Origin: Nitrospirota bacterium | GTDB lineage: Bacteria > Nitrospirota > JACRHJ01 | Length of the DNA: 31,092 bases | Direction of reading: 5' to 3' | NCBI GenBank assembly: GCA_036504315.1 | Contig: DASXVI010000122.1 | Coordinates: forward strand, 1-31,092 | In this document: positions 1,214-30,941 of the stretch, piece after piece | Layout: the number at the start of each line of letters is the position of its first letter | Position numbering within the stretch: the first letter of the stretch is position 1 | Translations under genes and position numbers: made by a program | The notes under the pieces: model-generated | The model's database searches: none | What the model was told of the DNA's origin: nothing | The model's input: only the letters and a program-made list of their open reading frames with translations

Positions 1214-1230
1214 ATACGAGGTGACGCCAG

Positions 1231-2313: not shown

Positions 2314-2336
2314 CCGAGGCTGAAATTTTGGCTTTT

Positions 2337-2370
2337 AAGAGGCGCCGGGCCGTAAGGCCGGGCGCCTCTT
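2337..2370 (+). terminator. GC-rich hairpin between the convergent genes at 1231..2313 and 2371..4413
   Basis: The arms are aagaggcgccgggcc and ggccgggcgcctctt. The stem is 10 bp plus 4 bp with one mismatch, the loop is gtaa, and tctttt follows on the plus strand. It fits a rho-independent terminator for the plus-strand gene. It abuts the stop of the minus-strand gene. Confidence 0.5.
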
Positions 2371-4413: not shown

Positions 4414-4458
4414 GTCAGTTCTTCCTTAAAACTCTTCGGGACCGTTGGTCCCTGACTT

Positions 4459-15800: not shown

Positions 15801-16167
15801 TATGGACCTGCATATGTACGGGCCGGGCGGGGGGCACACCTACTACAAGAGCCCGAATATGTACGAGTCTCCCGAGGCTATCGCGGGTGCGCAGTTAGAG
15901 CAGGACTCGAAGGCCAATTTCGGGCCCGAGGTCTTCACGCAGGAGCACGCGGACAAAGGCGCTTATACAATCAAGTCGAATTATTTTTATAGCGGTGGTG
16001 ACGGCAACGCTCACGCGACCGTCACCGTGATATTATACGGAGACAACCCCTCCCGAAGGATAGTCAGGGTGTTTGGTCCACACCTGCAGGTCGACACCAA
16101 GAACGGTGAAGACACCTGGGAGGTCACTAAGTTCAAGATGCCGGAAGGGATTTTCCTGGAGGATTGA
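12826..16167 (+). CDS. giant single-pass envelope protein with a long Gly/Ser/Ala-rich disordered linker and C-terminal Ig-like domains
   Basis: 1113 aa. The start may be the ATG at 12829. A cytoplasmic N-domain with TPR-like helices occupies ~200 aa. One TM helix follows (LSYIIPSAIVHALLFLTIGFL). From residues ~230 to 780 there is a low-complexity acidic/Gly/Ser/Ala-rich region. Two Big/Ig-like beta repeats follow (ILSPTSGKT...ITLDYY and INIISPRDGQ...VNIM). A conserved-looking C-terminal ~130-aa domain (SWDKPHADMDLHMYGPGGGHTYY...YFYSGGDGNAHATVTVILYG) may be YfaP/DUF2135-like. That assignment is from memory and unverified. Confidence 0.55.
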   Translation: MMQEDQENGSETGLKSGANTAPSLVADISPEELYQAGTAHFRHRDYDQARACFEDLLKVCSPEQDSGPYSGSDSGNAPLVPAALHMLARVCHAQNRELDRAEEMLKKAVEQDKEGLTRYLETLGMIYIHQGKYEKAGEVFGYALAEDDGRDRQHSFSLSFYNDLVTKKLKAQHKRLSSNKPDFLDEDKKRFKRRGPLSYIIPSAIVHALLFLTIGFLSMHDIVMQPESKEDFTVVDVQQEEERQMAESPSDEARPVDENPQPQSREDLEANAVPTPANQQRQDAKAGSVAKGGGASMGQAAAGKASESERSGSVGRKSAAAVQGGETKEDLAMKSLGVKGVDLKQHSPEFASSDVDLVRKSLSPASAGSDRSGAKEAKVGGLTDRSATKASVTADGVYIGNTGAKESKWQKERASDIRQGGQADNAPAPNMQEEKKVALNSPSGNRKFETNPEVAARRLDLSSGGPASGGKSAAGPDRFASMDRQAAASAAGKANADFSSTLFGSNKAAAGGKAAGSLGASASSGDTGPSIQSERANVQLPQAGGKNYNFVDGVPVARQLDMGTAGASNGGGAPGQRAGGQGQKFASLDRGAGGAVSPGTAGAAAGSMVGRPGAGYGSAATGSAKQGGSRAVSGGGDSGGTGSGFGGFLGAAVKKASDFVGSVGRSMGSVGGSDSEVKRVKSLSGMGGGTSGSGGPGSGGGTGNGRGGVRLGSGEKSASGGPAGGYQAQAGGVTPSGGKTGVGAGKKMAEGALGVPGQSGDRFASFGKGEIGPSSMEKGTAVGKTVKTARNAIAPAVQILSPTSGKTNKLSQVITGTVSDTRTRKATLTINNESRVISVDRGRFESVVSLAKGRNIVTVMAFDVDGNVGKDNITLDYYEPSAGVPINIISPRDGQVFDVSERSVVSVKGTIGDPQVKKAKLIFNGNPMDIVVNRGYFEQKIALVQEQNTILVEAVSTDGETVSRSSRTKVNIMNAKPKDIMVILSWDKPHADMDLHMYGPGGGHTYYKSPNMYESPEAIAGAQLEQDSKANFGPEVFTQEHADKGAYTIKSNYFYSGGDGNAHATVTVILYGDNPSRRIVRVFGPHLQVDTKNGEDTWEVTKFKMPEGIFLED

Positions 16168-16174
16168 CAGCAAC

Positions 16175-19100: not shown

Positions 19101-19588
19101 TATCCGCCGGAGGCCCGCTGAAGGCCCCTGCGGCCCTCAAGGCAGGCAAGCTCGAAGAAAAGCTCGGCAGGACCGACAGCGCGGTCGCGCTCTATGATAC
19201 CGCGGCGGCCGACAACGACTACGCGTCCGAGGCGCTGGTGGGCAAGGGCAGGACGCTGATTGCGGCGAAGAGATATCCCGATGCGTCCGCCGCGTTGGAC
19301 AAGGCCCCTGATTACCCGGCGGATGCCGTCGTCCGCGCAGAGGGCTACTGCCTCGCCGGCGATGCGGCCCAGGCCGCAGGGCAGTACAAAGACGCGGTCA
19401 TACGGTATACTAAGGCTACGGTCCTTGGCGACAGCCCGTCAAAGCCCATGGCTATGGTTGGGATTGCGAGGAGCTACGCCGCACTCGGGGACAAGGACAA
19501 GGCCGCAAGCGCTTATAAAAAATTTATTGAGGCCTTCCCGACAAACGAGTTGACGGGGGCCGCTCAGGCGGAGCTTGGAAAGTTATAG
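16175..19588 (+). CDS. secreted giant TPR-repeat protein (YbgF/CpoB-type repeats)
   Basis: The start is probably the ATG at 16175, where the signal peptide MKKLSLFLAALLAVSAAAMPALA begins. The track ORF extends upstream in frame from 16073. About 1137 aa carry 25 or more reiterations of the unit (K/E)YPDSxxxxxAxYxLGxxY with alternating A/Y/L periodicity. This is typical of Tol-Pal YbgF-type TPR repeats. Confidence 0.7.
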   Translation: MKKLSLFLAALLAVSAAAMPALAESSNEIMKTAVQLYQNADYDLAADQFAKFLEQFPNDAQASDALYGLSEAQFAKGSVKEALASFDSLLAKFPDSPKIPEAKLRRADCLYMLKDYQKAAEAYQGFISGYPDSALRSDAYFMMGHCYVRLVNFPKAADAFNQVAAKFPDSPKAGEAAFLAGEAYSQDGQFDKARNSYQTAVSRGGEKFAERAEFRLADAAFMGGRYEEAKNTLSSFLQNHPGSPDAPLARMELGDVYIKSGDFENAIISYDLFVSKYPTSELMPEVEFRVAEAYYQKQEYKKAVEKYLGLLNKYPDSGARDKYLYGLGWSYYKLEDYSSATDAFTRLVDMSPDSELVTGSHMKLGEINTRNKKYSEAAASFKQAIARSKDPKDLKTARYGLAWAFYQAKMFKEAIDPLQELIAMSPDESELIEAKYLLSRAKLFVGDFLPAINGFTEIADKYKDNPLAQESLMGLAESYERRGDELYKAINAYKRLLTEYPDTKRKAEALFSIGRNYLEHENYPQAVEGFRELLNRVPDSEYHERAYFGIAEAYYGSKDYDKAKENYDAYLVKFPQGALKDQAVYGLAWSQMGMKDYQDAYTNFGRVLAGNAAGSLSADSMLEQGEALYNLEKYADAAKAYSDVIAKYPTAEPAKKAHYVLGWALLKQGKNTEAATEFRTFSEANPKDPLSLEADFQRALVLAQAGQSEQSAELLSKVSEKGAGKDVGTRAKLELAKVLTSKGDAMKAQALLDELKKGGSGGVSQEASFQIGVVKFNEGNWAEAKKAFGEYIAAGADGEYAARAHYFLGLSLLNLKDLDGGSSELKKVVDSGQQELRPDATFWLADTGYNLGKYQEALELYESFTSQYGAHRLMPEAEYGRAWALEKLNRTDDAKAAFKAIAVKYPDGAHAADAWYKVGEYAFKDKRYADVETAFQSFLKLQPESKLKADAYYQMAVAQDALGKSEPAATSFRAVVSAGGPLKAPAALKAGKLEEKLGRTDSAVALYDTAAADNDYASEALVGKGRTLIAAKRYPDASAALDKAPDYPADAVVRAEGYCLAGDAAQAAGQYKDAVIRYTKATVLGDSPSKPMAMVGIARSYAALGDKDKAASAYKKFIEAFPTNELTGAAQAELGKL

Positions 19589-19630: not shown

Positions 19631-20629
19631 ATGAAAGGAGAAAGCTTTATGAGGTGGCTGACGGTCGGTATGATAATCGTCTTGTCCGTGTGCGGCCAGT
19701 CGTTTGCCGAGACGGAGGGGTTGCCCAGGCCGGGGATGAGGCAGGCGGCAATCACGGAGTCCCTGAAGGACCAGGACCCCGTTGTAAGACAGACCGCGGC
19801 AAGGACGCTTGGTGAAGCTCACGAGAAATCCGCTGTCCCGGCGCTGTCGGAGGCTGCGGCAAAAGACCCGGACGAGACTGTGCGGCTTACCGCTATAGGT
19901 GCGCTGTCGGTAATAGGCGACAGGTCCGCAATGCCGGCCTATGTCAAGGCCCTGAAGGACGAAGCCGAGAAGGTGCGCCAGAGCGCCGCCGAGGCGTTGT
20001 CGGGCATGTGGGACGAGTCCGCGCACCAGGCGCTTATAGAGGCCCTGAGGACGGATATATCGCCCAAGGTAAGGCGCTCGGCCGCACAGGCCCTCGGAAA
20101 CCCCGGTATAATGGGACGCTACCAGGCGCACCACTGGGAACAGGACAAGCCGGACAGCGAAGGCTCGCTGATGGACGCGCTCAAAAAAGACGAGAGCCCG
20201 GAGGTAAGGGCGATGTCCGCGTCCATGCTGGCCAATTTCAAGACGGGCCGCTCGCTCGACCCGCTGATAGACGCACTTGCCGACAAGAACGCATCGGTGC
20301 GCGCGTCGGCCGCGGAGGCGCTCGGCGTCCTTGACAAGCCGCGCTCTGTCGAGAAGCTGCTCGATGTGCTCTATTTTGAGAAGGACGACTATGTGGTGCT
20401 CAATGCGCTCAAGTCGCTCAAATACGCAGTAGACCCTCGCCTTGCGGGCGCAGCTATCGGCGCGCTCCGTTCGTCGAGCCAGAGAGTCAGGTGGCAGGCG
20501 ATAGATGTCCTTGAAACGCTCAGGACGCAGGATGCCGTCGAGCCGCTGAAGTCGCTTTCCGAAGACAAGTACGAGTCCGACGGCATCAAGAACAAGGCCC
20601 GCGAGGCGCTCCAGCTTCTCGGGCAGTAA
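19631..20629 (+). CDS. secreted HEAT-repeat (PBS-lyase type) protein
   Basis: It has an N-terminal signal peptide (MRWLTVGMIIVLSVCGQSFA). An alternative start is ATG 19649. Repeats of the form DxxVRxxAAxALGxxxxxxAVpaLxxAL number 6 or more. These are the PBS-lyase HEAT-like signature. Confidence 0.6.
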   Translation: MKGESFMRWLTVGMIIVLSVCGQSFAETEGLPRPGMRQAAITESLKDQDPVVRQTAARTLGEAHEKSAVPALSEAAAKDPDETVRLTAIGALSVIGDRSAMPAYVKALKDEAEKVRQSAAEALSGMWDESAHQALIEALRTDISPKVRRSAAQALGNPGIMGRYQAHHWEQDKPDSEGSLMDALKKDESPEVRAMSASMLANFKTGRSLDPLIDALADKNASVRASAAEALGVLDKPRSVEKLLDVLYFEKDDYVVLNALKSLKYAVDPRLAGAAIGALRSSSQRVRWQAIDVLETLRTQDAVEPLKSLSEDKYESDGIKNKAREALQLLGQ

Positions 20630-20640
20630 GGATAAAAAAG

Positions 20641-21783
20641 ATGGCCGCAGGCAACCCCGTCTCAGTAGAAAAACTAAAGGGAATATTTTCCGCCAACCTC
20701 GGCTCCCGGCCGGGAGAGAGGACGCTCGTGTTCACCGACACGGTGCGGCCCGACGAGGTAATAGGCGAGGTGGACAGGGGCCGGCGCGAAGGCCTTGTCC
20801 TGGTTGCCCGGGCCGCGGCCCAGGCCGCAAGAGAGCTCGGGCTGGATGTCGTGTACCACGAATACGAGGCATTGACAACCCACGGCTCGGAGCCGCGCGA
20901 GGAGCTTTGGAGGCTCGCCTTCGGCGATGCCGCGGTGGACGAGTTTAAGGCTTCGGGCGTGCTGGACAGGATAATAGCGAAAACGGCGACGGACGACGAT
21001 AAAAAAAATGCGGCGGATATAACGGCAAGGCACGCCGCCGGGGCTGTTCGCGCGGTCGTCGCGCTCCCGAACAACTCGACGAGCCATACCCGGTTTCGGG
21101 ACCTGCTCACTTCGGCGTCGGGCGTCAGGTACGCCAGCATGCCGATGTTCGAGGCTGATATGCTGGACGGCTCGATGTGCGTGGACTGGTCTGAGGTAGA
21201 GGCCCGCTCGAAGAAGATTGCCGCGGCGATCGAGGGCGCGGACGCGGCCCGGGTCACGACGGCGCTCGGCACGGACATTACCTTCAGCATCGCGGGCAGG
21301 CCGCCGCAGTTGGACACGGGCAACCTCAGGCAGCCGGGCTCGTTCAGCAACCTTCCGGCGGGCGAGGTATACCTTGCTCCGGTCGAGGGCACAGGCAACG
21401 GCGTGCTGGTGCTTCAGTGGGCCCCTAGCAGGAAGCTTGTCTCTCTTGTACGGGTGACCGTCAAGGACGGGATGGCGGCAGAGGTCGAAGGCGACGAGCC
21501 GTTCGCGGCGGAGTTCACCGCAAGCCTCGACAGGGCACCGATGAACCGCAACCTGGCCGAGCTGGGCATAGGCACGAACGACCGGGCTTCGAAGCCCGAC
21601 AATGTGCTCGAGTCCGAGAAGATACTCGGGACCATACACCTCGCCTTCGGAGACAACACATCTATGGGAGGCAAGGTCAGCACTCCGTTCCACCAGGATT
21701 TCGTATTCTTCGGGCCGACCCTCGCGGTAAGGAAATCCGGCCGGTGGACCAACGTAATAGAAAATGGCGGGCAGGTTGTCTGA
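20641..21783 (+). CDS. aminopeptidase, M29 (AmpS/PepS aminopeptidase T-like) family
   Basis: 380 aa. It has the motifs NLPAGEVYLAPVEG, AELGIGTN and GTIHLAFGDN, then HQDFVFFGP. These give the E/E/H/H/D metal-ligand arrangement characteristic of M29 thermophilic metalloproteases. Confidence 0.55.
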   Translation: MAAGNPVSVEKLKGIFSANLGSRPGERTLVFTDTVRPDEVIGEVDRGRREGLVLVARAAAQAARELGLDVVYHEYEALTTHGSEPREELWRLAFGDAAVDEFKASGVLDRIIAKTATDDDKKNAADITARHAAGAVRAVVALPNNSTSHTRFRDLLTSASGVRYASMPMFEADMLDGSMCVDWSEVEARSKKIAAAIEGADAARVTTALGTDITFSIAGRPPQLDTGNLRQPGSFSNLPAGEVYLAPVEGTGNGVLVLQWAPSRKLVSLVRVTVKDGMAAEVEGDEPFAAEFTASLDRAPMNRNLAELGIGTNDRASKPDNVLESEKILGTIHLAFGDNTSMGGKVSTPFHQDFVFFGPTLAVRKSGRWTNVIENGGQVV

Positions 21784-21788
21784 GGCTG

Positions 21789-24488
21789 ATGAACTTTAAT
21801 AAAAAACGGCCCATCACCATACTTAATTTCGAAGTGTTCCCGCTCGCGGTCCTGGTAGGGGTGTTCCTGCTCTCAGCGTTTGCTCTCTTTTATCATTATT
21901 ACGCGACCAGGCAGCAGCTCAAGAACGATTTTTCCCAGGCACGGGTTCTGACCGCCCGTTATACGGCGCGGGGGATTTCGGAGTATCTCAGCCGGGAACA
22001 GGCCGAGGTATTGAGTATTGCCGGCAACCTGAGGCTGTACGGCCTGTCAAAGGGGGAACAGGCGCTCGAGACAGCCTACAAATCCCACCATCGCTCACAG
22101 AAACTCCACTCGTTTTTTGTAATGGACGCCAAGGGCAGGTTCCTGTTCTCCTATCCCGAGACGCTTATCGACCGCTATATGCAGGACCTCTCCGCCGAGC
22201 CTTATTTTACAGAGGCAAAAGCCGGCAGGTTATCCTTCTCTCCCGCAATTGAAGACAACAAGGGTGGCTGGAGCGTATACCTTTCGGCCCCGGTAGTTTC
22301 GGGGGACGGGACGCTTTCGGCAGTCGTCTCGGAGAAGATAGATGTCCGCTCCATCGAGCAGGAGTTCATAGCCGACCTGGATGCAGGCCCGCAGACGCAT
22401 GCCTTCCTCGTAGACGAGAACGGCCGGACGCTGGCCAACCAGACAAGCGAAAGCCTGTATCAGATAAAGGCTTCCGGCGCAATGCTTAAAGAAATGCTCA
22501 GAGGGAAAGAAGGCGTTTTCGAGACGGATGCAACAGACGGGGACGGTAAAGAAATGACATTTATCTCCCCGATGATGTTCGGGGGGCGGCCATGGTCTGT
22601 AGGACTGGTCAGCAGTATGGACGAGGTTTACAGCGAAGCGGCTGAAAACCTGCAGCGGACAATAGTGATAATATCGCTGATGACGCTTGCCTTCGCGTGG
22701 AGCCTGGTATCGGTCGCAAGGTCCAGCCGTTTCAAGGCGATGGTAAACGAGCGCACCCGTTATTCCGAGCAACTTTTAATGCGCAATAAAGAGCTTGCTA
22801 CGCTCAATGAGCTTGCGCGGGTTTTCGGCGGCAGCGCCAGCCTGGACAAAATGCTCGAACAGGCGGTACAGGTAATAAAGGACGGTTTTGGAGCGAAGGG
22901 TGTCGCCGTGCGGCTTGCGTCACCTCCGCAAGGGGACCTTGTGTTGAAGGCGCATACCGGCATCCCTGAAGCCCTGGCAGGCCGGCAGGTATGCACCGAG
23001 GTCCGCCGCTGTGTCTGCGGCAAGGTCATGCAGGGCGGCGAGGCAGTATTTTATAACAAAAAGGAGCTTGACGCGCTCCCTGACATGCCTTGCGGCGGGA
23101 AATGGGAGCATAATCTGGCGAGGATACCCTTGCAGGCGAAAAATAAGGCGCTGGGCGTCCTGTATATAACCGGGCTGGGGGAATACGAGTTCGCGGGCGA
23201 TAGGGACAAGTTTATTCTGGCCATCGGCAACCAGCTTGCGGGCGGGCTTGAGAACTTCCTCCAGATGGAAGATACCAAGAGGCATGCAGCCAGGGCCTCT
23301 GCGTTGTTCCACACGGCCCAGGCCCTGACAAAGAGCCTGGATTTGGACGAACTGCTGCGTATCATCATGAAAGAAGCTGCCGCCCTTCTGAAGGTAAGGC
23401 GCTGCCTGCTTTTCCTATACAGCGAAGAGCAGAACAGGGTCGATTGCAGGGTTGCCCTCGGGTTTGAAAATTTCAGTTCCGAGAGCCTCAGCTTCAGCCC
23501 GTCGGGAATATTCTGGGAGGCGATGGGAGAAGGCACGGTCAAGGTGGTGGACCTCGGGCAGCGCACCCATAACCTCCCGAATAAGTTCCGCGAGATGGTG
23601 GACCTTTATAACTTTATCCTTGTGCCCCTTACCTCGAAAGGTAAGGTGCTCGGGTTCCTGGTGCTGGAGGCCGGGAAGAACCAGGCCGCCATAGACGACC
23701 TGAAACTCGTCATGGGGTTTGCCAACCAGGCTGCGGTGGCTATCGAGACTTCGTCGTTTTATATAAGGACTGTCGAAAAATACAATGTCGACCTCCAGCA
23801 GCTCTCCAACAGGATACTCGAGGCGCAGGAGGAGGAGAGAAAGAGGATTTCCAGGGACCTGCACGATGAACTGGGACAGGTACTCACCGCGATAAAGATT
23901 AACCTCGATATGCTGAGGTCTGAGCTTCCGCAGGACGCGGAGCAGCCGAGGACGAGGGTCAGGGACACCGTCGAGATGGCGGTATCCGCGCTCGACAGCG
24001 TCCGCAGGCTTTCGTTTGAACTGCGGCCCTCGATGCTCGACGACCTGGGGCTCAGCACCGTAATCAGCAAACTTGTCTCGGACTTCAGGAAGCGGTCCGG
24101 CATAAATGTCGAGTATTCCGAAGAGGGTATAGACGAAAGGCTCGACCCGCAGTTTGAGGTAGGGCTTTACAGGGTGGTCCAGGAGGCTTTCACTAATATC
24201 CTTAAACACGCAGAGGCGAAGAACGTGTTTGTAACCCTTGTCAAAGTCCCGGAACAAGGTATAGTGAACTTGAAAATCGAGGACGACGGCAAGGGGTTCG
24301 ATATGGCGGACCCCGATGGGACTAGCCCAAAAGGGTTCGGCCTGCTCGGGATAAGGGAAAGGGTTGTGCTGATGGGCGGCAATTTCAGGATTATTTCGAG
24401 AAAAGGGGCTGGGACGAAGCTTTTAGTCGATATACCGATGGCGAAAGGAGAACGAGATGGGGGAGATGTTGAAAATACTGCTGGTTGA
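21789..24488 (+). CDS. sensor histidine kinase: TM, Cache-like periplasmic domain, TM, two GAF domains, HisKA_3 and HATPase_c
   Basis: The start is probably the ATG at 21789. The track start at 21744 overlaps the previous gene. TM helices flank a ~270-aa periplasmic domain. Two GAF-like segments lie at ~residues 330-500 and 520-680. The H-box RKRISRDLHDELGQVLTAIKINLDM is of HisKA_3 (NarX/DegS) type. The ATP-binding N, G1 and G2 boxes are present (EAFTNILKHA, DDGKGF, GFGLLGIRER). Confidence 0.8.
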   Translation: MNFNKKRPITILNFEVFPLAVLVGVFLLSAFALFYHYYATRQQLKNDFSQARVLTARYTARGISEYLSREQAEVLSIAGNLRLYGLSKGEQALETAYKSHHRSQKLHSFFVMDAKGRFLFSYPETLIDRYMQDLSAEPYFTEAKAGRLSFSPAIEDNKGGWSVYLSAPVVSGDGTLSAVVSEKIDVRSIEQEFIADLDAGPQTHAFLVDENGRTLANQTSESLYQIKASGAMLKEMLRGKEGVFETDATDGDGKEMTFISPMMFGGRPWSVGLVSSMDEVYSEAAENLQRTIVIISLMTLAFAWSLVSVARSSRFKAMVNERTRYSEQLLMRNKELATLNELARVFGGSASLDKMLEQAVQVIKDGFGAKGVAVRLASPPQGDLVLKAHTGIPEALAGRQVCTEVRRCVCGKVMQGGEAVFYNKKELDALPDMPCGGKWEHNLARIPLQAKNKALGVLYITGLGEYEFAGDRDKFILAIGNQLAGGLENFLQMEDTKRHAARASALFHTAQALTKSLDLDELLRIIMKEAAALLKVRRCLLFLYSEEQNRVDCRVALGFENFSSESLSFSPSGIFWEAMGEGTVKVVDLGQRTHNLPNKFREMVDLYNFILVPLTSKGKVLGFLVLEAGKNQAAIDDLKLVMGFANQAAVAIETSSFYIRTVEKYNVDLQQLSNRILEAQEEERKRISRDLHDELGQVLTAIKINLDMLRSELPQDAEQPRTRVRDTVEMAVSALDSVRRLSFELRPSMLDDLGLSTVISKLVSDFRKRSGINVEYSEEGIDERLDPQFEVGLYRVVQEAFTNILKHAEAKNVFVTLVKVPEQGIVNLKIEDDGKGFDMADPDGTSPKGFGLLGIRERVVLMGGNFRIISRKGAGTKLLVDIPMAKGERDGGDVENTAG

Positions 24489-25116
24489 CGACCATACTAT
24501 CGTAAGGCAGGGGCTCCGTGCGCTGCTTGAGTCCCAGGAAGGCTTCCAGGTCGTCGGAGAGGCAGACAACGGCAGGGATGCCGTCAAGAAGGCCCAGGAA
24601 CTCCAGCCGGATGTTGTAATAATGGATATCGCCATGCCGATTTTGAACGGCCTCGAAGCGACCCGCCAGATAAAGAAAATAATGCCGGAGGTCAAGATTG
24701 TGGCGCTCACCATGTATAACGACGAGGAGTATGTTTTTCAGATACTCAAGTCAGGCGCATCCGGGTATCTGATAAAGGAGACGGCCGCAAACGAACTGAT
24801 AACCGCGATCAACTCGGTCAAAGGCGGCAACCCTTTCTTTTCGCCGCTTATCTCAAGGAAAATAATGGAGAGCTATCTCCGTGAAGACAGTGAAAAGAAG
24901 GCAGAAGGGGATAAGCTCACGAACCGCGAGAAGGAAGTGCTCCAGCTTATCGCGGAGGGCTATACTAACAATGAGATAGGCAATTTAATGGGTATCAGCG
25001 TCAAAACGGTGGAGACCCACAGGGCGCATATAATGAGCAAGCTCGACATACATGATATGGCTGGACTGATAAAGTATGCGATAAAAAAGGGACTTGTCAT
25101 ACTCGATAACAAATAG
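24457..25116 (+). CDS. response regulator, NarL/LuxR family (REC + HTH_LuxR)
   Basis: 219 aa. The receiver has LLVDDH and D(54)-like MDIAMP, then ALTMY and GYLIKE. The C-terminal LuxR HTH is LTNREKEVLQLIAEGYTNNEIGNLMGISVKTVETHR. It overlaps the kinase 3' end by 32 nt, suggesting coupling. Confidence 0.85.
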   Translation: MGEMLKILLVDDHTIVRQGLRALLESQEGFQVVGEADNGRDAVKKAQELQPDVVIMDIAMPILNGLEATRQIKKIMPEVKIVALTMYNDEEYVFQILKSGASGYLIKETAANELITAINSVKGGNPFFSPLISRKIMESYLREDSEKKAEGDKLTNREKEVLQLIAEGYTNNEIGNLMGISVKTVETHRAHIMSKLDIHDMAGLIKYAIKKGLVILDNK

Positions 25117-25210
25117 ACCCGTCCCGGAAAGCGTGATTGAGCATCGGTGAGCGCATATGCTCATGGGCGCAGGCCCTCAATTGCGCAAAAACAATCTTCC
25201 GCGAATAAAA

Positions 25211-25246
25211 ACAGCCCCCAAGCGCTTTTTGGGGGCTGTTTTTTGT
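25211..25246 (+). terminator. rho-independent terminator after the two-component operon
   Basis: The stem acagcccccaa/ttgggggctgt is 11 bp with a gcgcttt loop. A tttttt run follows. Confidence 0.7.
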
Positions 25247-25555
25247 TTCTGTATCCATTATTTTTTAAAAAATCGCAACGGCCAATCTAAAAGTTATCCC
25301 ATCAATTAATAAAGATTTAGACCATGCCCTATTAGCCTGCCGACATCAAAATTTCACGCCAATAATTCCTAAGTAAGACCAAAGGTACGGTTGTTGCACT
25401 TATAAGTCATTGTATTATAAGGGAAATCCCTTACATGGCAGTAAGGTCTTTATTAGGAATATATACATTAACCACCTGATGCGAATGAAATGGCTTATTC
25501 TTTTAAACATTTGAATTTTATAAGTTTAACACTTAGGAGAAAAGGCGGTGCGGAT

Positions 25556-27547
25556 ATGAAAAAAACGCTTCTGACGCTGGTGGGAACCCTGACGTTCCTG
25601 GCGGCGGCCTATGGCCTCGCCGGTGCGACAGCCTCTAACAACCCACCGCATACGGACTATCGGCCGGGCTATGGCACCAGCTGCGCCGCCGGCAACGCGG
25701 CATGTCATACCGTGAGCCAGGGAACCTTCCTGCCGGAGACTCTGACAACCAGCGACTCGGCAAACTGGGCCAATTTCTGCGCTTCGTGCCATAACTCGGG
25801 CGGCGAGGCACACGACAAGTCGGTCGGCTCGGCATCGACAGTCCAATATAATAATGTAACAGGTGGTCTGGTCTCGGGCAGCTACTCGGGCAACTCGCAC
25901 AGCTGGAACGGCAGCATTAAAGCCGGGGGCACGAGGGTTCCGACCGCAGCGGGCTACAATGGAGTGTTTTATATGCCCGGCAATAAAGTCGTCTGTACCA
26001 CTTGTCACAAGGGCGTGCAGAAGATTGTCGGCATACAGAATATAGACTGGATACAGGCCACGGATTCCGGCGACCATATAAATTACACCATACTCGGTTA
26101 CTCGACAACGGACCAGCACCTGTCCCAGTATGTAAAGGTGTACAGGGCCGCCGCTACGACCGCCCGCCCGACGAACAGCCGCACCAAAAAGGACTACCTT
26201 GTCAGCCCGGCCGAATATTCCTACGATTACACGACGGCCAAGGTGACCTTCACGGCAGCGCAGTCCGCAGCCAGCGTCATTTATGTGGATATCCCGCAGC
26301 CGTATTACAGGGTTGACAACAAGGCCAACGCGGCCTGCTTCGACTGCCATCTCGACCGTGTCGATACCGCGGCTTCGCATGCCCCCGGCACCGGCGTAAA
26401 GGACGGCCACCCGGTCAACCTGACCTACGGCAAGAATTTCGGCCTGAACAATACCTTGAAGCCGTCCGCATCTTCGGCGGTCTATCTCGAAGGCGGAAAG
26501 GTCATCTGCACCTCCTGCCATGATGTCCATAACTCGGCATCCAAAGAAGGCAACGCGCTCCGCGAGGCCGACGGCTCGACCCTCTGCACCGACTGCCACA
26601 AGACCAGGTTCGACGGGTATTCCAGTTCCGATTCCGTGAACAACCATTTTGGCGCAAAGCATGCCACGGCGACCGTCTGCCTGGAGTGCCATACGACCCA
26701 CGGCAGCAACAATATAATGCTGATCAGGAATACAATTAACGGCAAAACCATAAACTTCCAGAATTTCAGCGGCGCGAACAGCTTCAGCAACGGCTCCGGC
26801 AACGGGGTCTGCGCAGCCTGCCACATGGCCACCAACTACCACAAGGCCGACGGCACTGGCGCCTCGCATAATGCAAACCTCAACTGCACACAGTGCCACA
26901 GCCACGCAAGCGGCTTCAAGCCGAACGGCGACTGCACGAGTTGCCACGACTTGACCAGCGATAAAATCCCGTCCGGCTGGGTTGACGCCGGCGACCACAA
27001 GTCGCACCTGGCACGCGGCGCGGCCTGCACCGACTGCCACCCGGCGGTTTCCGGCGCGCATCCGGAAGGCCTTGCCTCCGCGAAGATTATCCTCTCCGGC
27101 TGGAGCGACGGCGGCACGACCGGCAAGATTAGCACAAACGACGACACCTGCACCAACATCGGATGCCATTCCGGCACAAGGACCTGGAAGACCGCGTCCG
27201 GCTGCGACGGCTGCCACTCGTATCCGGGCTCGGCGACTAACCCCTGGACTGCCGGCAACGGCCACCTGGTCACCGACGATGTGTTCGCGGCCCATATGAT
27301 GGGGACCGGCTATAACGCGGCGACCGACACCTATGCGGCCATGGTTGCCGACCCGACCAGGTGCGGCAAGTGCCACCCGAACGTCCCGTCCAACCACCAG
27401 AACGGCACGGTCAACGTTGCTGGCAACGGGCTTTCGGCCTGCGGCGGCGGCAACTTCACGATTTCGGTAACGGCATCCGGCTCCAATGTCACCTGCAACA
27501 ATGTCAGGTGTCACGGAGCAGGGAAGACAACTCCGAACTGGTATTAA
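25556..27547 (+). CDS. secreted multiheme c-type cytochrome (about 12 CXXCH plus variant CX4CH/CX6CH motifs)
   Basis: The start is ATG 25556, 5 nt after GGTG/AGGAG-like RBS elements. The track ORF begins upstream at 25490. The signal peptide is MKKTLLTLVGTLTFLAAAYGLAGA. Haem-binding motifs are CASCH, CTTCH, CFDCH, CTSCH, CTDCH, CLECH, CAACH, CTQCH, CTSCH, CTDCH, CDGCH and CGKCH. Variant motifs are CTNIGCH, CNNVRCH and CAAGNAACH. The paired CX4CH..CXXCH module CTNIGCHSGTRTWKTASGCDGCH is of the type described for Geobacter cytochromes. The composition is Thr/Ser/Asn/Gly-rich. The C-terminus is ...CNNVRCHGAGKTTPNWY. Confidence 0.8.
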   Translation: MKKTLLTLVGTLTFLAAAYGLAGATASNNPPHTDYRPGYGTSCAAGNAACHTVSQGTFLPETLTTSDSANWANFCASCHNSGGEAHDKSVGSASTVQYNNVTGGLVSGSYSGNSHSWNGSIKAGGTRVPTAAGYNGVFYMPGNKVVCTTCHKGVQKIVGIQNIDWIQATDSGDHINYTILGYSTTDQHLSQYVKVYRAAATTARPTNSRTKKDYLVSPAEYSYDYTTAKVTFTAAQSAASVIYVDIPQPYYRVDNKANAACFDCHLDRVDTAASHAPGTGVKDGHPVNLTYGKNFGLNNTLKPSASSAVYLEGGKVICTSCHDVHNSASKEGNALREADGSTLCTDCHKTRFDGYSSSDSVNNHFGAKHATATVCLECHTTHGSNNIMLIRNTINGKTINFQNFSGANSFSNGSGNGVCAACHMATNYHKADGTGASHNANLNCTQCHSHASGFKPNGDCTSCHDLTSDKIPSGWVDAGDHKSHLARGAACTDCHPAVSGAHPEGLASAKIILSGWSDGGTTGKISTNDDTCTNIGCHSGTRTWKTASGCDGCHSYPGSATNPWTAGNGHLVTDDVFAAHMMGTGYNAATDTYAAMVADPTRCGKCHPNVPSNHQNGTVNVAGNGLSACGGGNFTISVTASGSNVTCNNVRCHGAGKTTPNWY

Positions 27548-27640
27548 GGCAAGGTTATTAACTTTAGATGTACCGTAGAAGGACTTCTTAAGGAGTTTGG
27601 GAAGTAAGTTTTAATCGGGTACTTTATCAGGAGGGATGAA

Positions 27641-29134
27641 ATGGGGAAATGTAAGACTTTGTTAATGGCGGTAATGGCCTTCGCGCTGACCCTGGGTCTC
27701 GCGTCGATGGCATCTGCCGCGACGATCACCTGCGGCGGTTGCCACGGTACTGCCCCGAACGGCAATCCGGTCAATGGCGACAACTGCACTAACACGGCGC
27801 GCGGCCTGCACGGCATGCATGTCAACTACTCTTCGCTCACTTACAAGAAGACGGTCGCCAGCAACGGCAAGTGCGCATATTGCCACGCCGCGGTTTCGGA
27901 CGCCAAGGGTATCGCGTCCAGGACCCACAACAACAACTTCATTAACGTAACCGGCAACACGAACGCCGTTGGCGCTCTGAATACGCTGACGATGTCGTAC
28001 AACTCGGCCTCGAAGACCTGCACCAACGTCTGCCACAAGAACAAGGACAACGGCTCGGCAAAGTGGGGCAACTACACCGCCACCACGGTCGGCAACATCA
28101 AGCTCTCCTGCCGTTCCTGCCACGACGATATCGTCGACAAGGCTGGCCTTTCCGGCAAGCACAGCACGCACCTGCTCGCCAACACCACGACGGCCGCAGG
28201 CGTCCTGATGAGCTCCGCTAACAACGCGGGCTGCGTTGCCTGCCACCCGAATGTCGTTACCGACATATTCTCCGGCGGTAAAGCCGACGACGGCACGAAG
28301 AAGGCATACCCGCACGCCACCGACGGTACAAACGTCGTTGCCGACAATGCGGTCCTCAACGGCCAGATCACCGGCTCCACAAAGGCCGGCCTGAACACGA
28401 CCTGCACCAACACCTGCCATCCGAGGTCTGCCGCCATAACCTGGAACACGGCTTGGGCGCAGGGCGCGGGCACTGGCTGCGATATGTGCCACTACTGGGC
28501 GGCCGCCACGCTCGATACCAGCAACACCGGTACCGGCTCGCTGTCCTCCGGCCACAACTTCCACTTCAAGAGCCCGAATAACTTTGCTTGCACGAACTGC
28601 CATCCGGACCATGGCACCACCTATGATTACCATGGCGCCAAGCTCCCGGCACAGGCATACAACGTCAAAGTCGTAAGGGCCGGCATGACATATACCGCCG
28701 CCACGAAGACCTGCTCCAACACCGGCCTCGGCTGCCACGGCTCGTACACCACCGAGGCATGGAGCCTGGGCGTACCGACCGGTTGCGCGGCTTGCCATAC
28801 CTATCCGGGTGTAGCCGGCAGGGATTGGGCGACGGTAGGCAATGGCCACCTCGTCAGATATGCCGCTTCGGCTGCTACCAACACGCACCTGCGTGACAAT
28901 GCAAGCTACAACAACCTGACCGACACCTACGCATCAGTCACGGCCAGCACCTCCAAGTGCGGTCTTTGCCACCCGGCTTCAGGCGTCCATTACAATGGCA
29001 CGACCGATGTTGCAGGCAGCGGCAATGGCCAGTGCGGCGGAAACTTCACCGTTACTGTCACCACTTCCGGCTCGAACGTCACCTGCGGGTCCGTCAAGTG
29101 CCACAACGGCAAGACGACCCCGAACTGGTGGTAG
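27641..29134 (+). CDS. secreted multiheme c-type cytochrome, paralog of the neighbouring cytochromes
   Basis: An AGGAGGG RBS lies 5 nt upstream. The signal peptide is MGKCKTLLMAVMAFALTLGLASMASA. The CXXCH motifs are CGGCH, CAYCH, CRSCH, CVACH, CDMCH, CTNCH, CAACH and CGLCH. Variant motifs are CTNVCH, CTNTCH, CSNTGLGCH and CGSVKCH. It shares the block KGIAS(R/K)THNNN...TCTN(V/A)CHKNK with the third cytochrome. It shares the C-terminal CGSVKCHNGKTTPNWW with the first. Confidence 0.8.
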   Translation: MGKCKTLLMAVMAFALTLGLASMASAATITCGGCHGTAPNGNPVNGDNCTNTARGLHGMHVNYSSLTYKKTVASNGKCAYCHAAVSDAKGIASRTHNNNFINVTGNTNAVGALNTLTMSYNSASKTCTNVCHKNKDNGSAKWGNYTATTVGNIKLSCRSCHDDIVDKAGLSGKHSTHLLANTTTAAGVLMSSANNAGCVACHPNVVTDIFSGGKADDGTKKAYPHATDGTNVVADNAVLNGQITGSTKAGLNTTCTNTCHPRSAAITWNTAWAQGAGTGCDMCHYWAAATLDTSNTGTGSLSSGHNFHFKSPNNFACTNCHPDHGTTYDYHGAKLPAQAYNVKVVRAGMTYTAATKTCSNTGLGCHGSYTTEAWSLGVPTGCAACHTYPGVAGRDWATVGNGHLVRYAASAATNTHLRDNASYNNLTDTYASVTASTSKCGLCHPASGVHYNGTTDVAGSGNGQCGGNFTVTVTTSGSNVTCGSVKCHNGKTTPNWW

Positions 29135-29146
29135 TAATCTGACAGT

Positions 29147-29190
29147 CTTTCGGGTCCCGCCTTTGGGCGGGACCCGAAAGGGCTGTGTTT
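29147..29190 (+). terminator. strong GC-rich hairpin terminator after the second cytochrome gene
   Basis: The arm ctttcgggtcccgcc at 29147-29161 pairs with ggcgggacccgaaag at 29166-29180. The stem is a perfect 15 bp with a tttg loop. The sequence ggctgtgtttct follows. Confidence 0.6.
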
Positions 29191-29296
29191 CTCGCAGGAT
29201 GCGCAAACAAAATTGCGCACCTTTCCAGAAATACAGAATAAATACTCAAACATTTATTAATTTTTGAATATTACGGTTATCTACGGGAGGACGAAA

Positions 29297-30901
29297 ATGG
29301 GATACATAAAAAAGTCTGACAACGCAGGTTGGGGGATGCCTTCGGGGATAATTGCCCTCATCCTTTGGGTGGTGATGTTCGGGGCGGTAAATGGACCAGC
29401 CACGGCATATGCCGCCGTAATATCCTGCGGGCAGTGCCACAACAACCCGCCCGGCAATTATGAAGGCTGCAAGCCGATGCTGAAGAACCACTCGTCCCAC
29501 TCGACGGGCGCGGACCTCACGACCTGCGACCGTTGTCATCCTACTGTCCCGGGGCCGAAGGGTATCGCGTCCAAGACGCACAACAACAATATTACAAATA
29601 TCACCTCGGTTGCCGCTCCCGGCATGAGGTACAATACAACGACCGCGACCTGCACGAACGCCTGCCACAAGAACAAGAATTCGACTTGGGGTACCGCTAC
29701 CAACGACTGCAACATATGCCACTTCAGGAACGGCGCCCTCGGGAATGTTGCCATGTCCGGCCTGCATGTTGACGCTACCAGGTCATGGAAACACTTCAGC
29801 TCGATCGTAAGGGTGAACGGCGCCCAGATTGGTTGCAACACCTGCCACAAGAGCGCGGACACGGATATAACCACCTACAAGTCCCACATACAGACCCCCG
29901 GCTTCATTCAGAAGGGCGACATGTCGCAGGCCCATACCTATGTAGCCGTGACGACCATCGGCTATACAAAGGGCGCGACCCCGGTCCTGGGCACCTGCGC
30001 CAAGTCCTGCCATTACAACGGCAACGACCCGTTCGGCAATTACACGATCTACTTCAAGCCGGGCCAGAAGAAGCGCTTCGGCACATACCAGACTGCGGCA
30101 TGGGGCGACACCGACTTGAAGTGCAACGAATGCCACAGCACCCCGAGTCAGGAAGCCACCTTCGGCAATATAACCAGCTTCCTGAGCAAGAACGCGAACC
30201 TGCGCCACTCGAACCACATGTTCCGCTACAAACTTAACCCGTGGAACTTCCAGAGCCAGGACAGGAACATATACTGCGACGACTGCCACAGGACGCCGGA
30301 CATCAATGCGACACGCGGCTTCCAGCACCATTCTACAATCGGCGGCAGCGGCAACGGGGTAATCTCGCTTCCGGTGCAGTCTCAGAACTCGAAGGTTAAT
30401 TTGCAGTGGAGGAGCTCGACGGGACGCGACGGCATCAGCCCGGCTGTCTTCAACCAGGCAGACAACAACAGCTGCTCCAATGTCTACTGCCACACTTTCA
30501 TGGTCAGGGGCGAGTGGACTGAAGAGGCCTGCAATGCATGCCACGGCAAGAAAGACGGCGTCAATGTAGGGTCCGGCGCGCCTGGCTATGCCAACTTCAC
30601 GACTAACTACTCGACATTCGAGGACTATGCAGGCGGCGGCGGCGCGCATTACACGCACGTTACCAAGCGCGGTTATGCCTGCCGGGCCTGCCACTATGAC
30701 GGCGGCGGCGACGGCAACCCGGCCAACCATCACAATGTGAGCCCGAGGACCGTCTCCCGCGCCAATGTCAATGTTGGCGTGGAGCCGAAGTACTGGTTCA
30801 ACAACAAGACCTCTATATACAGCCTGACCACAAGAAGCTGCAGCGATGTCAGTTGCCACTACGGCGCTTCACAGAACTGGGACTGCGCACCGCTCCATTA
30901 A
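29297..30901 (+). CDS. membrane-anchored or secreted multiheme c-type cytochrome, third paralog
   Basis: The start is probably ATG 29297 with a GGGAGG RBS. The track ORF begins at 29264. An N-terminal hydrophobic segment is IIALILWVVMFGAV. The CXXCH motifs are CGQCH, CDRCH, CNICH, CNTCH, CNECH, CDDCH, CNACH and CRACH. Variant motifs are CTNACH, CAKSCH, CSNVYCH and CSDVSCH. The paired module is CSNVYCHTFMVRGEWTEEACNACH. Confidence 0.8.
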   Translation: MGYIKKSDNAGWGMPSGIIALILWVVMFGAVNGPATAYAAVISCGQCHNNPPGNYEGCKPMLKNHSSHSTGADLTTCDRCHPTVPGPKGIASKTHNNNITNITSVAAPGMRYNTTTATCTNACHKNKNSTWGTATNDCNICHFRNGALGNVAMSGLHVDATRSWKHFSSIVRVNGAQIGCNTCHKSADTDITTYKSHIQTPGFIQKGDMSQAHTYVAVTTIGYTKGATPVLGTCAKSCHYNGNDPFGNYTIYFKPGQKKRFGTYQTAAWGDTDLKCNECHSTPSQEATFGNITSFLSKNANLRHSNHMFRYKLNPWNFQSQDRNIYCDDCHRTPDINATRGFQHHSTIGGSGNGVISLPVQSQNSKVNLQWRSSTGRDGISPAVFNQADNNSCSNVYCHTFMVRGEWTEEACNACHGKKDGVNVGSGAPGYANFTTNYSTFEDYAGGGGAHYTHVTKRGYACRACHYDGGGDGNPANHHNVSPRTVSRANVNVGVEPKYWFNNKTSIYSLTTRSCSDVSCHYGASQNWDCAPLH

Positions 30902-30916
30902 TGATGACTAGCCAGA

Positions 30917-30941
30917 CCGGGAGGCGGCCAGCGCCTCCCGG
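30917..30941 (+). terminator. perfect 10-bp GC hairpin after the third cytochrome gene
   Basis: The arms are ccgggaggcg and cgcctcccgg with a gccag loop. No U-run follows. It may be a terminator or RNA-stability element. Confidence 0.35.

Follow-up and report, generated by a model that had tools for sequence, protein, structure and literature searches.

The DNA analysed here, referred to as the window, is one whole contig (DASXVI010000122.1; 31,092 nucleotides) of a Nitrospirota metagenome-assembled genome (MAG). Near its end lie three consecutive genes on the forward strand, cytA, cytB and cytC, which encode multihaem cytochromes (Table 1). These genes open a conserved, regulated four-gene operon, cytABCD, of uncultivated Nitrospirota, and its products are predicted to be exported, wire-like cytochromes. 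All three open reading frames (ORFs) are intact and match their NCBI proteins exactly. Each gene is preceded by a GGAGG-type ribosome-binding site, and the genes are separated by gaps of 93 bases (cytA-cytB) and 162 bases (cytB-cytC). A preliminary description of this DNA had reported three secreted multihaem cytochromes with mixed spacing of the haem motifs, and the ORFs were recovered at the same positions and all of the non-canonical motifs that it listed are present. Its sizes for the first two proteins (663 and 497 amino acids) were likewise correct, whereas the third, given as 535 amino acids, has 534.

CytA carries 12 CXXCH, two CX4CH (CTNIGCH, CNNVRCH) and one CX6CH motif (CAAGNAACH), 15 in total. 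CytB has eight CXXCH, two CX3CH (CTNVCH, CTNTCH), one CX4CH (CGSVKCH) and one CX6CH motif (CSNTGLGCH), and CytC has eight CXXCH, two CX3CH (CTNACH, CAKSCH) and two CX4CH motifs (CSNVYCH, CSDVSCH), which gives 12 in each. The sum for the three proteins is 39 haems. There is one motif per 41-45 residues and nearly every cysteine lies within a motif; therefore, the number of haem motifs is far beyond chance.

Each cytochrome begins with a Sec-type signal, in which a single hydrophobic segment precedes an AXA-type site; a second membrane segment is absent. The cleavage sites, judged by eye, are AGA before T in CytA, ASA before A in CytB and AYA before A in CytC, and no L-x-x-C lipobox was seen by eye at any of the three N-termini. 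On count, the proteins are rich in T, A, G, N and S, in agreement with the Thr/Ser/Asn/Gly-rich composition described earlier, while the numbers of N-x-S/T sequons (N-glycosylation) in CytA, CytB and CytC are not above the shuffled expectation. The C-terminal tails of CytA (...CHGAGKTTPNWY) and CytB (...CHNGKTTPNWW), and the block KGIASxTHNNN...TCTNxCHKNK common to CytB and CytC, had been pointed out as well and are both present in the sequences.

Table 1. Features of the cytochrome locus. Positions are those of the window.
Feature	Position	Strand	Basis and remarks
Sensor histidine kinase (dCache, two GAF, HisKA_3, HATPase), probable regulator of the cluster	21744..24488	+	Pfam
NarL/LuxR-type response regulator	24457..25116	+	Pfam Response_reg and GerE; syntenic in related loci
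Intrinsic terminator after the regulator gene	25207..25243	+	16-bp stem, T run; -25.7 kcal/mol
cytA (C1)	25556..27547	+	663 aa, 15 haem motifs; HEY3346659.1, 'cytochrome c3 family protein'
Predicted Sec signal peptide of CytA, MKKTLLTLVGTLTFLAAAYGLAGA before TASNNPPH	25556..25627	+	Sole N-terminal hydrophobic window; site by eye
C-terminal five-haem module of CytA (~180 aa), common with CytB	27023..27544	+	BLASTP
C-terminal half-repeat of CytA, CNNVRCHGAGKTTPNWY, first half of the TIGR01904 di-haem repeat	27494..27544	+	TIGR01904 and CytD-repeat models
cytB (C2)	27641..29134	+	497 aa, 12 haem motifs; HEY3346660.1, 'hypothetical protein VGK71_03445'
N-terminal module of CytB (~200 aa), common with CytC, holding KGIASRTHNNN...TCTNVCHKNK	27659..28267	+	BLASTP
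Mature N-terminus of CytB, ATITCGGCHGTAPN, second half of the TIGR01904 repeat, directly after the ASA site	27719..27760	+	Profile positions 49-65
Five-haem module at the C-terminus of CytB, paralogue of the one in CytA	28586..29131	+	BLASTP
C-terminal half-repeat of CytB, CGSVKCHNGKTTPNWW	29084..29131	+	TIGR01904, 14.8 bits alone, profile 1-44
Intergenic cytB-cytC hairpin, very stable; possible attenuator or mRNA stabiliser	29146..29181	+	16-bp stem, 11 G-C pairs, weak T tail; -39.2 kcal/mol
cytC (C3)	29297..30901	+	534 aa, 12 haem motifs; HEY3346661.1, 'hypothetical protein VGK71_03450'
Mature N-terminus of CytC, AVISCGQCHNNPPG, second half of the TIGR01904 repeat, after the AYA site	29414..29455	+	Profile positions 51-66
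C-terminal 'end cap' of CytC, CSDVSCHYGASQNWDCAPLH	30839..30898	+	Whole repeat, with CXXCH replaced by C-x-P-[LAV]-H at the end
G+C-rich hairpin directly after cytC	30917-30941		10-bp stem, no T tail; -25.8 kcal/mol
Ribosome-binding site GAGGGAGG at the contig end	31076..31092	+	Start of cytD expected just beyond

A conserved four-gene operon

The preliminary description treated the trio of genes as the unit, which proved to be an artefact of the contig end. The contig stops in a ribosome-binding site, beyond which a further gene is expected, and the conserved unit consists of four genes, the last of which encodes a giant cytochrome, CytD. The order CytA-CytB-CytC-giant CytD was found in the related loci L001, L004, L008, L009, L011 and L014, with about 150-600 bases between cytC and cytD, while L010 leaves its contig within cytB and L012 is fragmented. 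In the related loci, CytA has about 680-940 amino acids and 15-21 motifs, CytB is present in one or two copies, and CytC ends in NWDCxP[LAV]H. The cytA, cytB and cytC genes of L012 (5900-14000) and L014 (7271-13347), both on Microflora Danica MAG contigs, are split into many short frames, which are likely long-read frameshift errors or pseudogenes. These two loci were left out of the conservation counts, with the exception of the CytA of L014.

Two copies of CytD are complete (2012 and 3713 amino acids); the others exceed 2500 amino acids and are cut by contig ends. The protein consists of an N-terminal signal anchor, a haem-free region of 700-1160 amino acids and then up to 14 TIGR01904 repeats, and it has about 20-44 haem motifs. 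Fibronectin type III (Fn3) matches in the haem-free region are weak and mostly under the Pfam cutoff. A search with CytD as query returned four proteins. The context downstream of CytD is visible in L001 and L016 only, where it is followed by a convergent TPR gene (L001) or directly by a HEAT-repeat gene (L016, 11704-12357).

A search of 5.8 billion clustered proteins gave about 40 homologues of CytB, all metagenomic and none informatively named. A scan of one genome per species yielded seven CytB loci, all in MAGs of Nitrospirota/Nitrospirae recovered from groundwater, peat, and Danish soil and sediment. Similarly, about 25 full-length orthologues were found with the CytA profile, all of them metagenomic or from Nitrospirota. 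An exhaustive profile search with CytB returned 1145 cluster representatives at E <= 0.001, of which 130 reached E <= 1e-30. Apart from orthologues, these were mostly giant cytochromes of 2000-5300 amino acids, with up to 29 separate stretches matching in one protein. As the CytB profile repeats across these giant cytochromes, CytB is thus a free-standing copy of the module that is concatenated there. We found no description of this Nitrospirota cytochrome cluster in the literature.

A kinase-regulator or regulator-only arrangement lies directly upstream of cytA in L001, L008, L009, L010 and L012. Further upstream, most loci share an order of TPR/low-complexity/Ig-like, giant periplasmic TPR, HEAT-repeat and M29/NicX-like proteins; after the M29/NicX-like gene comes sometimes a histidine kinase, and then the NarL-type response regulator. 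The AT-rich stretch at 25250-25555, behind the intrinsic terminator, would carry the cluster's own promoter. The 440-base leader before cytA matched no Rfam family at gathering thresholds, and 25100-25600 gave only terminator-hairpin noise. GEMM riboswitches are borne by the Geobacter genes of OmcG, OmcH, OmcA and OmcS (PMC1950547). A GEMM-type riboswitch in the leader of cytA was rejected as a candidate, since the Rfam scan of the whole window was empty at gathering thresholds. The hairpins after cytB and cytC (Table 1) may set the subunit ratio or stabilise the transcripts; no such hairpin follows cytA.

Haem modules, ligands and relatives

The Pfam family Cytochrome_C7 matches CytA, CytB and CytC at 54, 33 and 30 bits, respectively (cutoff 24.8), and CytA further matches Paired_CXXCH_1 (44.7 bits) and NrfB-like (34 bits). 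The CxxxxCH/CxxCH domain TIGR01904 (cutoff 27 bits) is found in CytB (41.6 bits) and in CytC (61.6 bits over four stretches), while CytA alone stays below the cutoff at 23.0 bits. Internal copies of the CX4CH-Trp-CXXCH arrangement, in which CXXCH follows within about 15-25 residues, are CTNIGCHSGTRTWKTASGCDGCH in CytA, CSNTGLGCHGSYTTEAWSLGVPTGCAACH in CytB and CSNVYCHTFMVRGEWTEEACNACH in CytC. PF09698 is unmatched by the three proteins at E <= 0.1 in Pfam, whereas CytD does match it, and the NrfB and GSU2203 families score far below the NCBIfam cutoffs for all three. On these profile matches, CytA, CytB and CytC are mosaics of known haem modules, namely c7-like, doubled CXXCH/NrfB-like and TIGR01904 repeat modules.

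The proteins are related to each other through parts of their length. In BLASTP, amino acids 490-663 of CytA and 316-497 of CytB share 44% identity over 192 columns (E 4e-31), and amino acids 7-209 of CytB and 21-191 of CytC share 34% identity over 205 columns (E 2e-12 to 3e-17), while the similarity between CytA and CytC is marginal. The shared modules agree with the earlier view that the genes arose by duplication, but the paralogy is modular and was not seen at full length. The earlier label 'Geobacter-type' applies insofar as CytB and CytC contain the TIGR01904 domain, which was defined in Geobacter; it does not suit the host, a Nitrospirota MAG that is no relative of Geobacter.

In an alignment of 24 CytB homologues, 12/12 haem motifs and 11 non-motif histidines are invariant, and His331 is kept in 19/24. 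CytA has 16 invariant non-motif histidines for 15 haems (8 orthologues) and CytC has 13 for 12 haems, its last residue included (6 orthologues); these two alignments are shallow, and a surplus or deficit of one histidine is a hint only. There is no conserved Met pattern and no CXXCK in CytA, CytB or CytC, and no match to an enzyme family. Because the conserved spare histidines roughly equal the haems in number, the three proteins look like bis-His electron-transfer 'wire' proteins with low-spin haems rather than enzymes. The spacing between Cys and CH varies among orthologues at two conserved sites, from CX4CH to CX8CH at the first site of CytA (25682-25708) and from CX3CH to CX7CH at the ninth motif of CytB (28712-28738, CSNTGLGCH). 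The maturation system must tolerate variable loops.

The earlier statement that the proteins belong to no named family such as OmcS, OmcE, OmcZ, MtrC or OmcA was borne out, as there was no significant collinear match to the PDB and the MtrC/OmcA family TIGR03507 (cutoff 209.3) reached 20 bits in CytB (amino acids 96-210) and matched neither CytA nor CytC. Among PDB sequences, the single sequences of CytA, CytB and CytC had no match and the family profiles of CytB and CytC gave nothing meaningful. Neither OmcS nor OmcZ was matched by a PDB chain at E <= 1 with the single sequences or the family profiles of the three proteins, and OmcS had no NCBIfam match either. PF22113 appeared only as faint or weak precomputed matches in some homologues, and the DmsE/MtrA family TIGR03508 gave 26.7 bits in CytA against a cutoff of 192.2.

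The CytA profile matches chain 9yuq_N (31 bits, E 8.9e-7), the OmcE nanowire subunit of Desulfuromonas soudanensis as identified through bioRxiv 10.1101/2025.10.22.684050. The match is non-collinear, with profile positions 428-536 aligned to chain residues 24-127 and positions 280-352 to residues 135-217, and one of the two pieces is the widespread doubled-CXXCH module; the CytB and CytC profiles have no OmcE match. Membership of CytA in the OmcE family was rejected on these two short non-collinear pieces and on its 15 haems in 663 amino acids, versus four in about 220. Gene clusters of omcE typically hold genes for a large outer-membrane β-barrel and a β-propeller lipoprotein (bioRxiv 10.1101/2025.10.22.684050), and no such genes occur in the window or in the related loci.

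Comparison with the dodecahaem c7 cytochrome of the GSU1996 type (PDB 3OV0) shows a similar modular chain of haem domains in one polypeptide, in line with the Cytochrome_C7 matches. The CytA profile aligns with the c7 domains of GSU1996 in 3ov0 and 3oue at E 0.002-0.005. In contrast to the Nitrospirota proteins, GSU1996 is without the CX4CH..W..CXXCH repeat and the split termini described below. The triheme nanowire model TIGR04257 (cutoff 40 bits) gave at most 12 bits, on terminal fragments only, and no match on the full-length proteins.

Remote matches of CytA led to three tandem cytochromes of Geotalea uraniireducens Rf4 (locus L017; CP000698, about 4.02-4.05 Mb), with 1017, 1457 and 901 amino acids and 27, 36 and 22 motifs. 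By genome position and haem counts this locus appears to be Gura_3427/3428, which are tabulated as homologues of OmcG (GSU2882), OmcH (GSU2883) and GSU2884 (PMC9961858), and the link to G. sulfurreducens was made through that table. CytA and the 1017-amino-acid protein share 31% identity over 186 amino acids (BLASTP, E 4e-19). The family profiles scored 158.8 bits for CytA against the 1017-amino-acid protein, and 138.7 and 116.2 bits for CytB and CytC against the 1457-amino-acid protein, values that are inflated by repeats and haem motifs. By these alignments, the closest named relatives are the poorly characterised OmcA(GSU2884)/OmcH(GSU2883)/OmcG(GSU2882)-type clusters of Geobacteraceae, which are distant and related at the level of modules.

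In both clusters, three tandem cytochromes on the same strand carry TIGR01904/PF09698 repeats with mixed CXXCH and CX4CH motifs, the first protein begins with ..PPH.. and ends in CX4CH..W, and a Glucodextran_B/Ig-like protein lies nearby. The Geotalea cluster differs from ours in its phylum (Desulfobacterota rather than Nitrospirota) and in sequence, the identity being about 30% over parts. Moreover, the Nitrospirota proteins are about half the size, with 15/12/12 instead of 27/36/22 haems, and only they are followed by a fourth, giant Fn3-bearing cytochrome. The neighbours also differ, with TPR, HEAT and M29-like proteins and a NarL-type two-component system in Nitrospirota, and an NHL/Ig protein and a BNR propeller in Geotalea.

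Split repeats and spare cysteines at the protein ends

The conserved C-terminal tail had been presented as a motif shared by the trio. It is not a new motif but the first half of the TIGR01904 repeat (profile positions 1-45 of 73), and the second half of that repeat stands at the mature N-terminus of the next protein, ASA being followed by ATITCGGCHGTAP in CytB and AYA by AVISCGQCHNNPP in CytC. The tail CH-x-G-K-T-T-P-N-W-[WYN] is kept in 24/24 CytB homologues, and the first CXXCH lies a few residues past the AXA site in 24 members of the CytB family.

With TIGR01904, the last 60 amino acids of CytA scored 22.4 bits (positions 1-45 of 73) and the first 60 mature amino acids of CytB 10.6 bits (positions 49-65). 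Joined, the C-terminus of CytA and the N-terminus of CytB scored 36.3 bits over positions 1-65 in one stretch. Corresponding values were 34.2 bits for the C-terminus of CytA with the N-terminus of CytC, 27.0 bits for CytB with CytB and 25.3 bits for CytB with CytC, while halves in reversed order gave 20.6 bits, from the first half only. An independent hidden Markov model was built from 45 internal repeats of six CytD proteins. With this model, junctions in six loci scored 20-42 bits, compared with 9-25 bits for C-termini alone, 5-14 bits for N-termini alone and 16-23 bits for the reversed order. Joining the C-terminus of CytA or CytB to the N-terminus of CytA, which has no early CXXCH, gave 5-23 bits. 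More specifically, the C-terminus of CytA reached 37.5 bits when joined to the N-terminus of CytB and 24.4 bits alone, the N-terminus of CytC joined to upstream C-termini reached 22.9-41.7 bits, and CytB-to-CytB chimeras reached 20-36 bits (the latter two across the six loci). The spacing from Trp to Cys is 5-6 residues across the junction and 5-8 residues in internal repeats; for example, the internal repeat CTNTYCHGAGASPVWGVGTTTCATCHVSPP is comparable with the junction of CNNVRCHGAGKTTPNWY and ATITCGGCHGTAP.

The two outer ends of the set are different. The mature start of CytA is without a haem motif and reads PPH..DYR (8 orthologues), followed by a CX4-8CH site of variable spacing; an N-terminus of this type is also found in the 1017-amino-acid protein of Geotalea. 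CytC ends in a whole repeat, in which W528, D529, C530, P532 and H534 are invariant in 6 orthologues. Its C-terminal cysteine is retained even in a clade that is devoid of the other extra cysteines. The end C-x-P-[LAV]-H could be a haem site with a single thioether bond, or a distal histidine with a free or disulfide-bonded cysteine. Given the different start of CytA and the whole terminal repeat of CytC, the proteins therefore form a polar set, with start cap A, extender B and end cap C, in gene order.

The Geotalea cluster has the same arrangement. Its first protein starts with VDPPHD.. and ends with ..CTNVKCHFKPSKKWSTVK, and the second and third proteins start with ASTCSDCHGMPP right after the signal peptide, (A)STCSDCHGMPP. 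The second protein ends with ..CFNVRCHFKASKKWSTVK, whereas the third ends differently. Junction chimeras of Geotalea scored 31-33 bits, compared with 14-18 and 10-12 bits for the halves alone, and a third organism (locus L015) behaved likewise.

We tentatively suggest that A, B and C, and their OmcA/OmcH/OmcG counterparts in Geobacteraceae, could join head to tail by 'split-repeat complementation', although we regard this as somewhat doubtful. The terminal half-repeat CX4CH..W of one subunit would pair with the CXXCH..P at the mature start of the next and rebuild a tight di-haem unit, the one that is covalently continuous in the giant cytochromes. This would give a haem wire with polarity and a defined length, consisting of start cap A, one or more copies of B and end cap C, and in most Nitrospirota versions its junctions may be stapled by inter-subunit disulfides. 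An objection to split repeats is that the natural unit could run from CXXCH to CX4CH..W, in which case the curated profile might simply be out of phase. Against this objection, only about 15-25 residues, with a conserved Trp among them, separate the two motifs of the repeat, whereas the distance from CXXCH to the next CX4CH is long and variable. Furthermore, CytA starts without a half unit, CytC ends with a whole unit, and the polarity tracks gene order in two phyla.

The few cysteines outside haem motifs flank the split termini. In CytA, a single one precedes the final CX4CH by about 18 residues. CytB has two, located about 15 residues past the first CXXCH and about 17 residues ahead of the final CX4CH. 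In CytC, one follows the first CXXCH at a distance of about 10 residues, and the C-terminal cysteine comes in addition. They are present at the CytA C-terminus in 6/8 orthologues, at the CytC N-terminus in 5/6, and at the N- and C-termini of CytB in 19/24 and 20/24 homologues. Both extra cysteines of CytB occur in 19 family members, neither in four and a single one in one. Across loci, the extra cysteines of CytA, CytB and CytC are jointly present in five and jointly absent in L009 and L010; the joint loss probably reflects a single clade, so that the independent events are few. None of the internal CytD repeats (0/45) has a non-motif cysteine within 35 residues upstream or 30 residues downstream, and the number of cysteines in CytA is odd. 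This pattern is circumstantially that expected of inter-subunit disulfides across split junctions.

The same cysteines bear on the idea that at least one of the three cytochromes works as a multihaem enzyme with a substrate-binding haem, for instance in the reduction or oxidation of nitrogen compounds, sulfur compounds or metals, which we judge very improbable. Conserved non-motif cysteines near the termini, the C-x-P-[LAV]-H end of CytC and the one missing distal histidine of CytB would fit such an enzyme, as haems with His/Cys or Cys ligation are catalytic in TsdA and MccSep (PMC13510729). However, one clade has lost the extra cysteines jointly while retaining the haem motifs. There is also no CXXCK and no long-spacer motif of the MccA type, nor is there a match to NrfA, HAO, OTR, MccA or MccSep at or near the cutoffs, and the repetitive, wire-like architecture is shared with the giant repeat cytochromes. 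A link to MccSep, the pentahaem selenoprotein found in Nitrospirota and Geobacter, was rejected separately, its architecture being unrelated.

The complementary ends also allow an open polymer, in which CytB subunits, either by themselves or capped by CytA and CytC, assemble head to tail into an extracellular nanowire with 12 haems per subunit. The two ends of mature CytB complement each other as halves of one repeat, as the scores of the B-to-B chimeras indicate, and CytB is solitary in L003 and present in two copies in L009. The strong hairpin directly after cytB could raise the cytB transcript relative to that of cytC. In addition, CytB has one invariant spare histidine fewer than haems (11 versus 12), and in OmcS the ligation of one haem is completed by a histidine of the neighbouring subunit. 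By analogy only, the Nitrospirota proteins may resemble the OmcE, OmcS and OmcZ nanowires in such a completion of a haem site between subunits; they further resemble them as exported multihaem c-type cytochromes with little secondary structure. Even so, we consider a CytB filament quite unlikely. The histidine deficit concerns a single position, and His331 is present in 19/24 homologues. CytB has no sequence or profile similarity to solved nanowire subunits, the signs of export stop at the periplasm, and a fixed gene order with the distinct caps CytA and CytC suits a defined hetero-oligomer better than an open polymer.

Electron transfer, cellular location and genomic setting

Head-to-tail assembly and an extracellular location of the three cytochromes are inferred from their sequences. 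We find it fairly probable that the cytABC products act with CytD as one haem chain for extracellular or periplasm-spanning electron transfer. CytA, CytB and CytC would work jointly in the order of their genes, A to B to C, and the chain would exchange electrons, as donor or acceptor, with the giant Fn3-bearing CytD located at the cell surface. This would allow electron transfer to or from minerals or partner cells, possibly switched on by the adjacent sensor kinase.

Several observations weigh against a joint chain that reaches the cell surface. No porin or β-barrel gene was found in the 31-kb window or in L001, L004, L008-L011, L014 and L016, the view past CytD being limited to L001 and L016, and there is no secretion gene in the window and no lipobox in CytA, CytB or CytC. 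Hence, of the outer-surface or filament-forming architecture for extracellular electron transfer proposed in the preliminary description, the exported multihaem wire type stands, whereas placement at the surface finds no lipobox and no porin gene in its favour. Homologues of CytB also occur alone (L003) or with a small cytochrome only (L006), and the four-gene unit is not obligatory. The strong hairpin between cytB and cytC may uncouple the expression of the two genes. Finally, AlphaFold2 models of CytB (24-sequence alignment; mean predicted local distance difference test (pLDDT) 41, predicted template modelling score 0.27) and of its C-terminal five-haem module (pLDDT 58.6) were of low confidence and gave no fold match.

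The absence of porin genes from the related loci and of secretion genes from the window, together with type I signal peptides that have no lipobox and with conserved neighbours that are periplasmic TPR and HEAT-repeat proteins, would also suit cytochromes that remain in the periplasm. There, they would relay or store electrons (as a 'capacitor') and thereby connect quinol oxidoreductases of the inner membrane with partners in the periplasm or the outer membrane. This seems unlikely in view of the partner CytD, with its 2000-3700 amino acids, Fn3-like domains and 20-44 haem motifs. For comparable 27-haem proteins of Geobacter, the modelled length of about 350 Å exceeds the width of the periplasm (about 170 Å), and an extracellular location is predicted (bioRxiv 10.1101/2024.01.05.574438). 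The same survey of Desulfuromonadia predicts GSU2884, OmcH and OmcG to be extracellular, long, many-haem wires. Moreover, the Geobacteraceae relatives are classed as outer-surface cytochromes, and OmcG and OmcH are required for OmcB production and optimal Fe(III) reduction (PMC1950547; PMC2825233).

A haem chain with CytD would share several traits with porin-cytochrome complexes (PCCs), such as MtrCAB, OmaB-OmbB-OmcB, PCC3 of Gallionellaceae and the PCCs of Candidatus Manganitrophus. These systems likewise combine genes for several multihaem cytochromes, whose presumed task is electron transport between periplasm and exterior, and PCC3 includes very large cytochromes with 10-35 haems. They differ from the Nitrospirota cluster in the β-barrel porin gene, which the window and the related loci lack. 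Candidatus Manganitrophus is itself a member of the Nitrospirota with porin-dodecahaem complexes, likened here by their description in the literature; a link to these complexes was set aside as a literature lead, the window having no porin gene.

Upstream of the regulators, at 12826-16167 of the window, lies a gene for a 1113-amino-acid protein that starts with TPR repeats and has one membrane segment. A Gly/Ser/Ala-rich low-complexity region of about 500 amino acids, with a local G+C content of up to 0.68, is followed by two Glucodextran_B Ig-like domains and a C-terminal domain. Proteins with Glucodextran_B domains also adjoin the cytochrome clusters of Geotalea and L015. A 1171-amino-acid periplasmic protein of BamD/YbgF-like TPR units (16073-19588) and a signal-bearing HEAT/PBS-lyase-like repeat protein (19631-20629) are found upstream in most loci. 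In cyanobacteria, HEAT proteins of the PBS-lyase type attach tetrapyrroles to cysteines; that the HEAT/PBS-lyase-like protein might act in cytochrome assembly is pure speculation by analogy. Further away, at 5268-7859, the gene of an SPFH/Band-7 protein with three C-terminal zinc ribbons is followed without a gap by that of a 491-amino-acid protein with two zinc-ribbon-like CxxC pairs and no family match. A gene set of the cell-envelope glycolipid type (287-5145) encodes a UbiA-like prenyltransferase with a TTG start at 287 (identified by eye), a DUF362 protein, a 680-amino-acid PMT_2/ArnT-like glycosyltransferase and a GT2 glycosyltransferase.

Some related loci have neighbours of their own. 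In L011, ORFs at 2100-4400, upstream of the cytochromes, resemble a C-terminal fragment of a secretin and two pseudopilins/type IV pilins, as judged by eye from the ORF termini alone; they are followed by a two-component system of the sigma-54 type, which replaces the NarL type. The solitary CytB homologue of L003 adjoins a large glycosyltransferase cluster. In L015, genes for ResB and CcsA (System II cytochrome c maturation; 20277-22358) lie about 4 kb downstream of a distantly related cluster of giant CxxxxCH/CxxCH cytochromes and are followed by two B12-binding radical SAM genes; they could constitute a dedicated maturation system.

The locus bears on two broader problems, namely how bacteria in which no porin-cytochrome complex is recognisable transfer electrons through the cell envelope and beyond it, and how very long haem chains are built. 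With 39 haems and a giant partner, the operon is a candidate electron-transfer machinery of uncultivated Nitrospirota of soil, sediment and groundwater. In two phyla the complementary termini follow gene order, which suggests that each protein's end supplies the missing half at the start of its successor. If this rule is wrong, the three proteins still represent a well-delimited new cytochrome family, ordinary of its kind. If it is true, split-repeat assembly would be a new principle for cytochrome wires, apart from the OmcS, OmcE and OmcZ homopolymers and the porin-cytochrome complexes. The OmcA/OmcH/OmcG-type clusters of Geobacter, long uncharacterised, would then be explained as well, and the rule could help to annotate multi-gene cytochrome wires in metagenomes.

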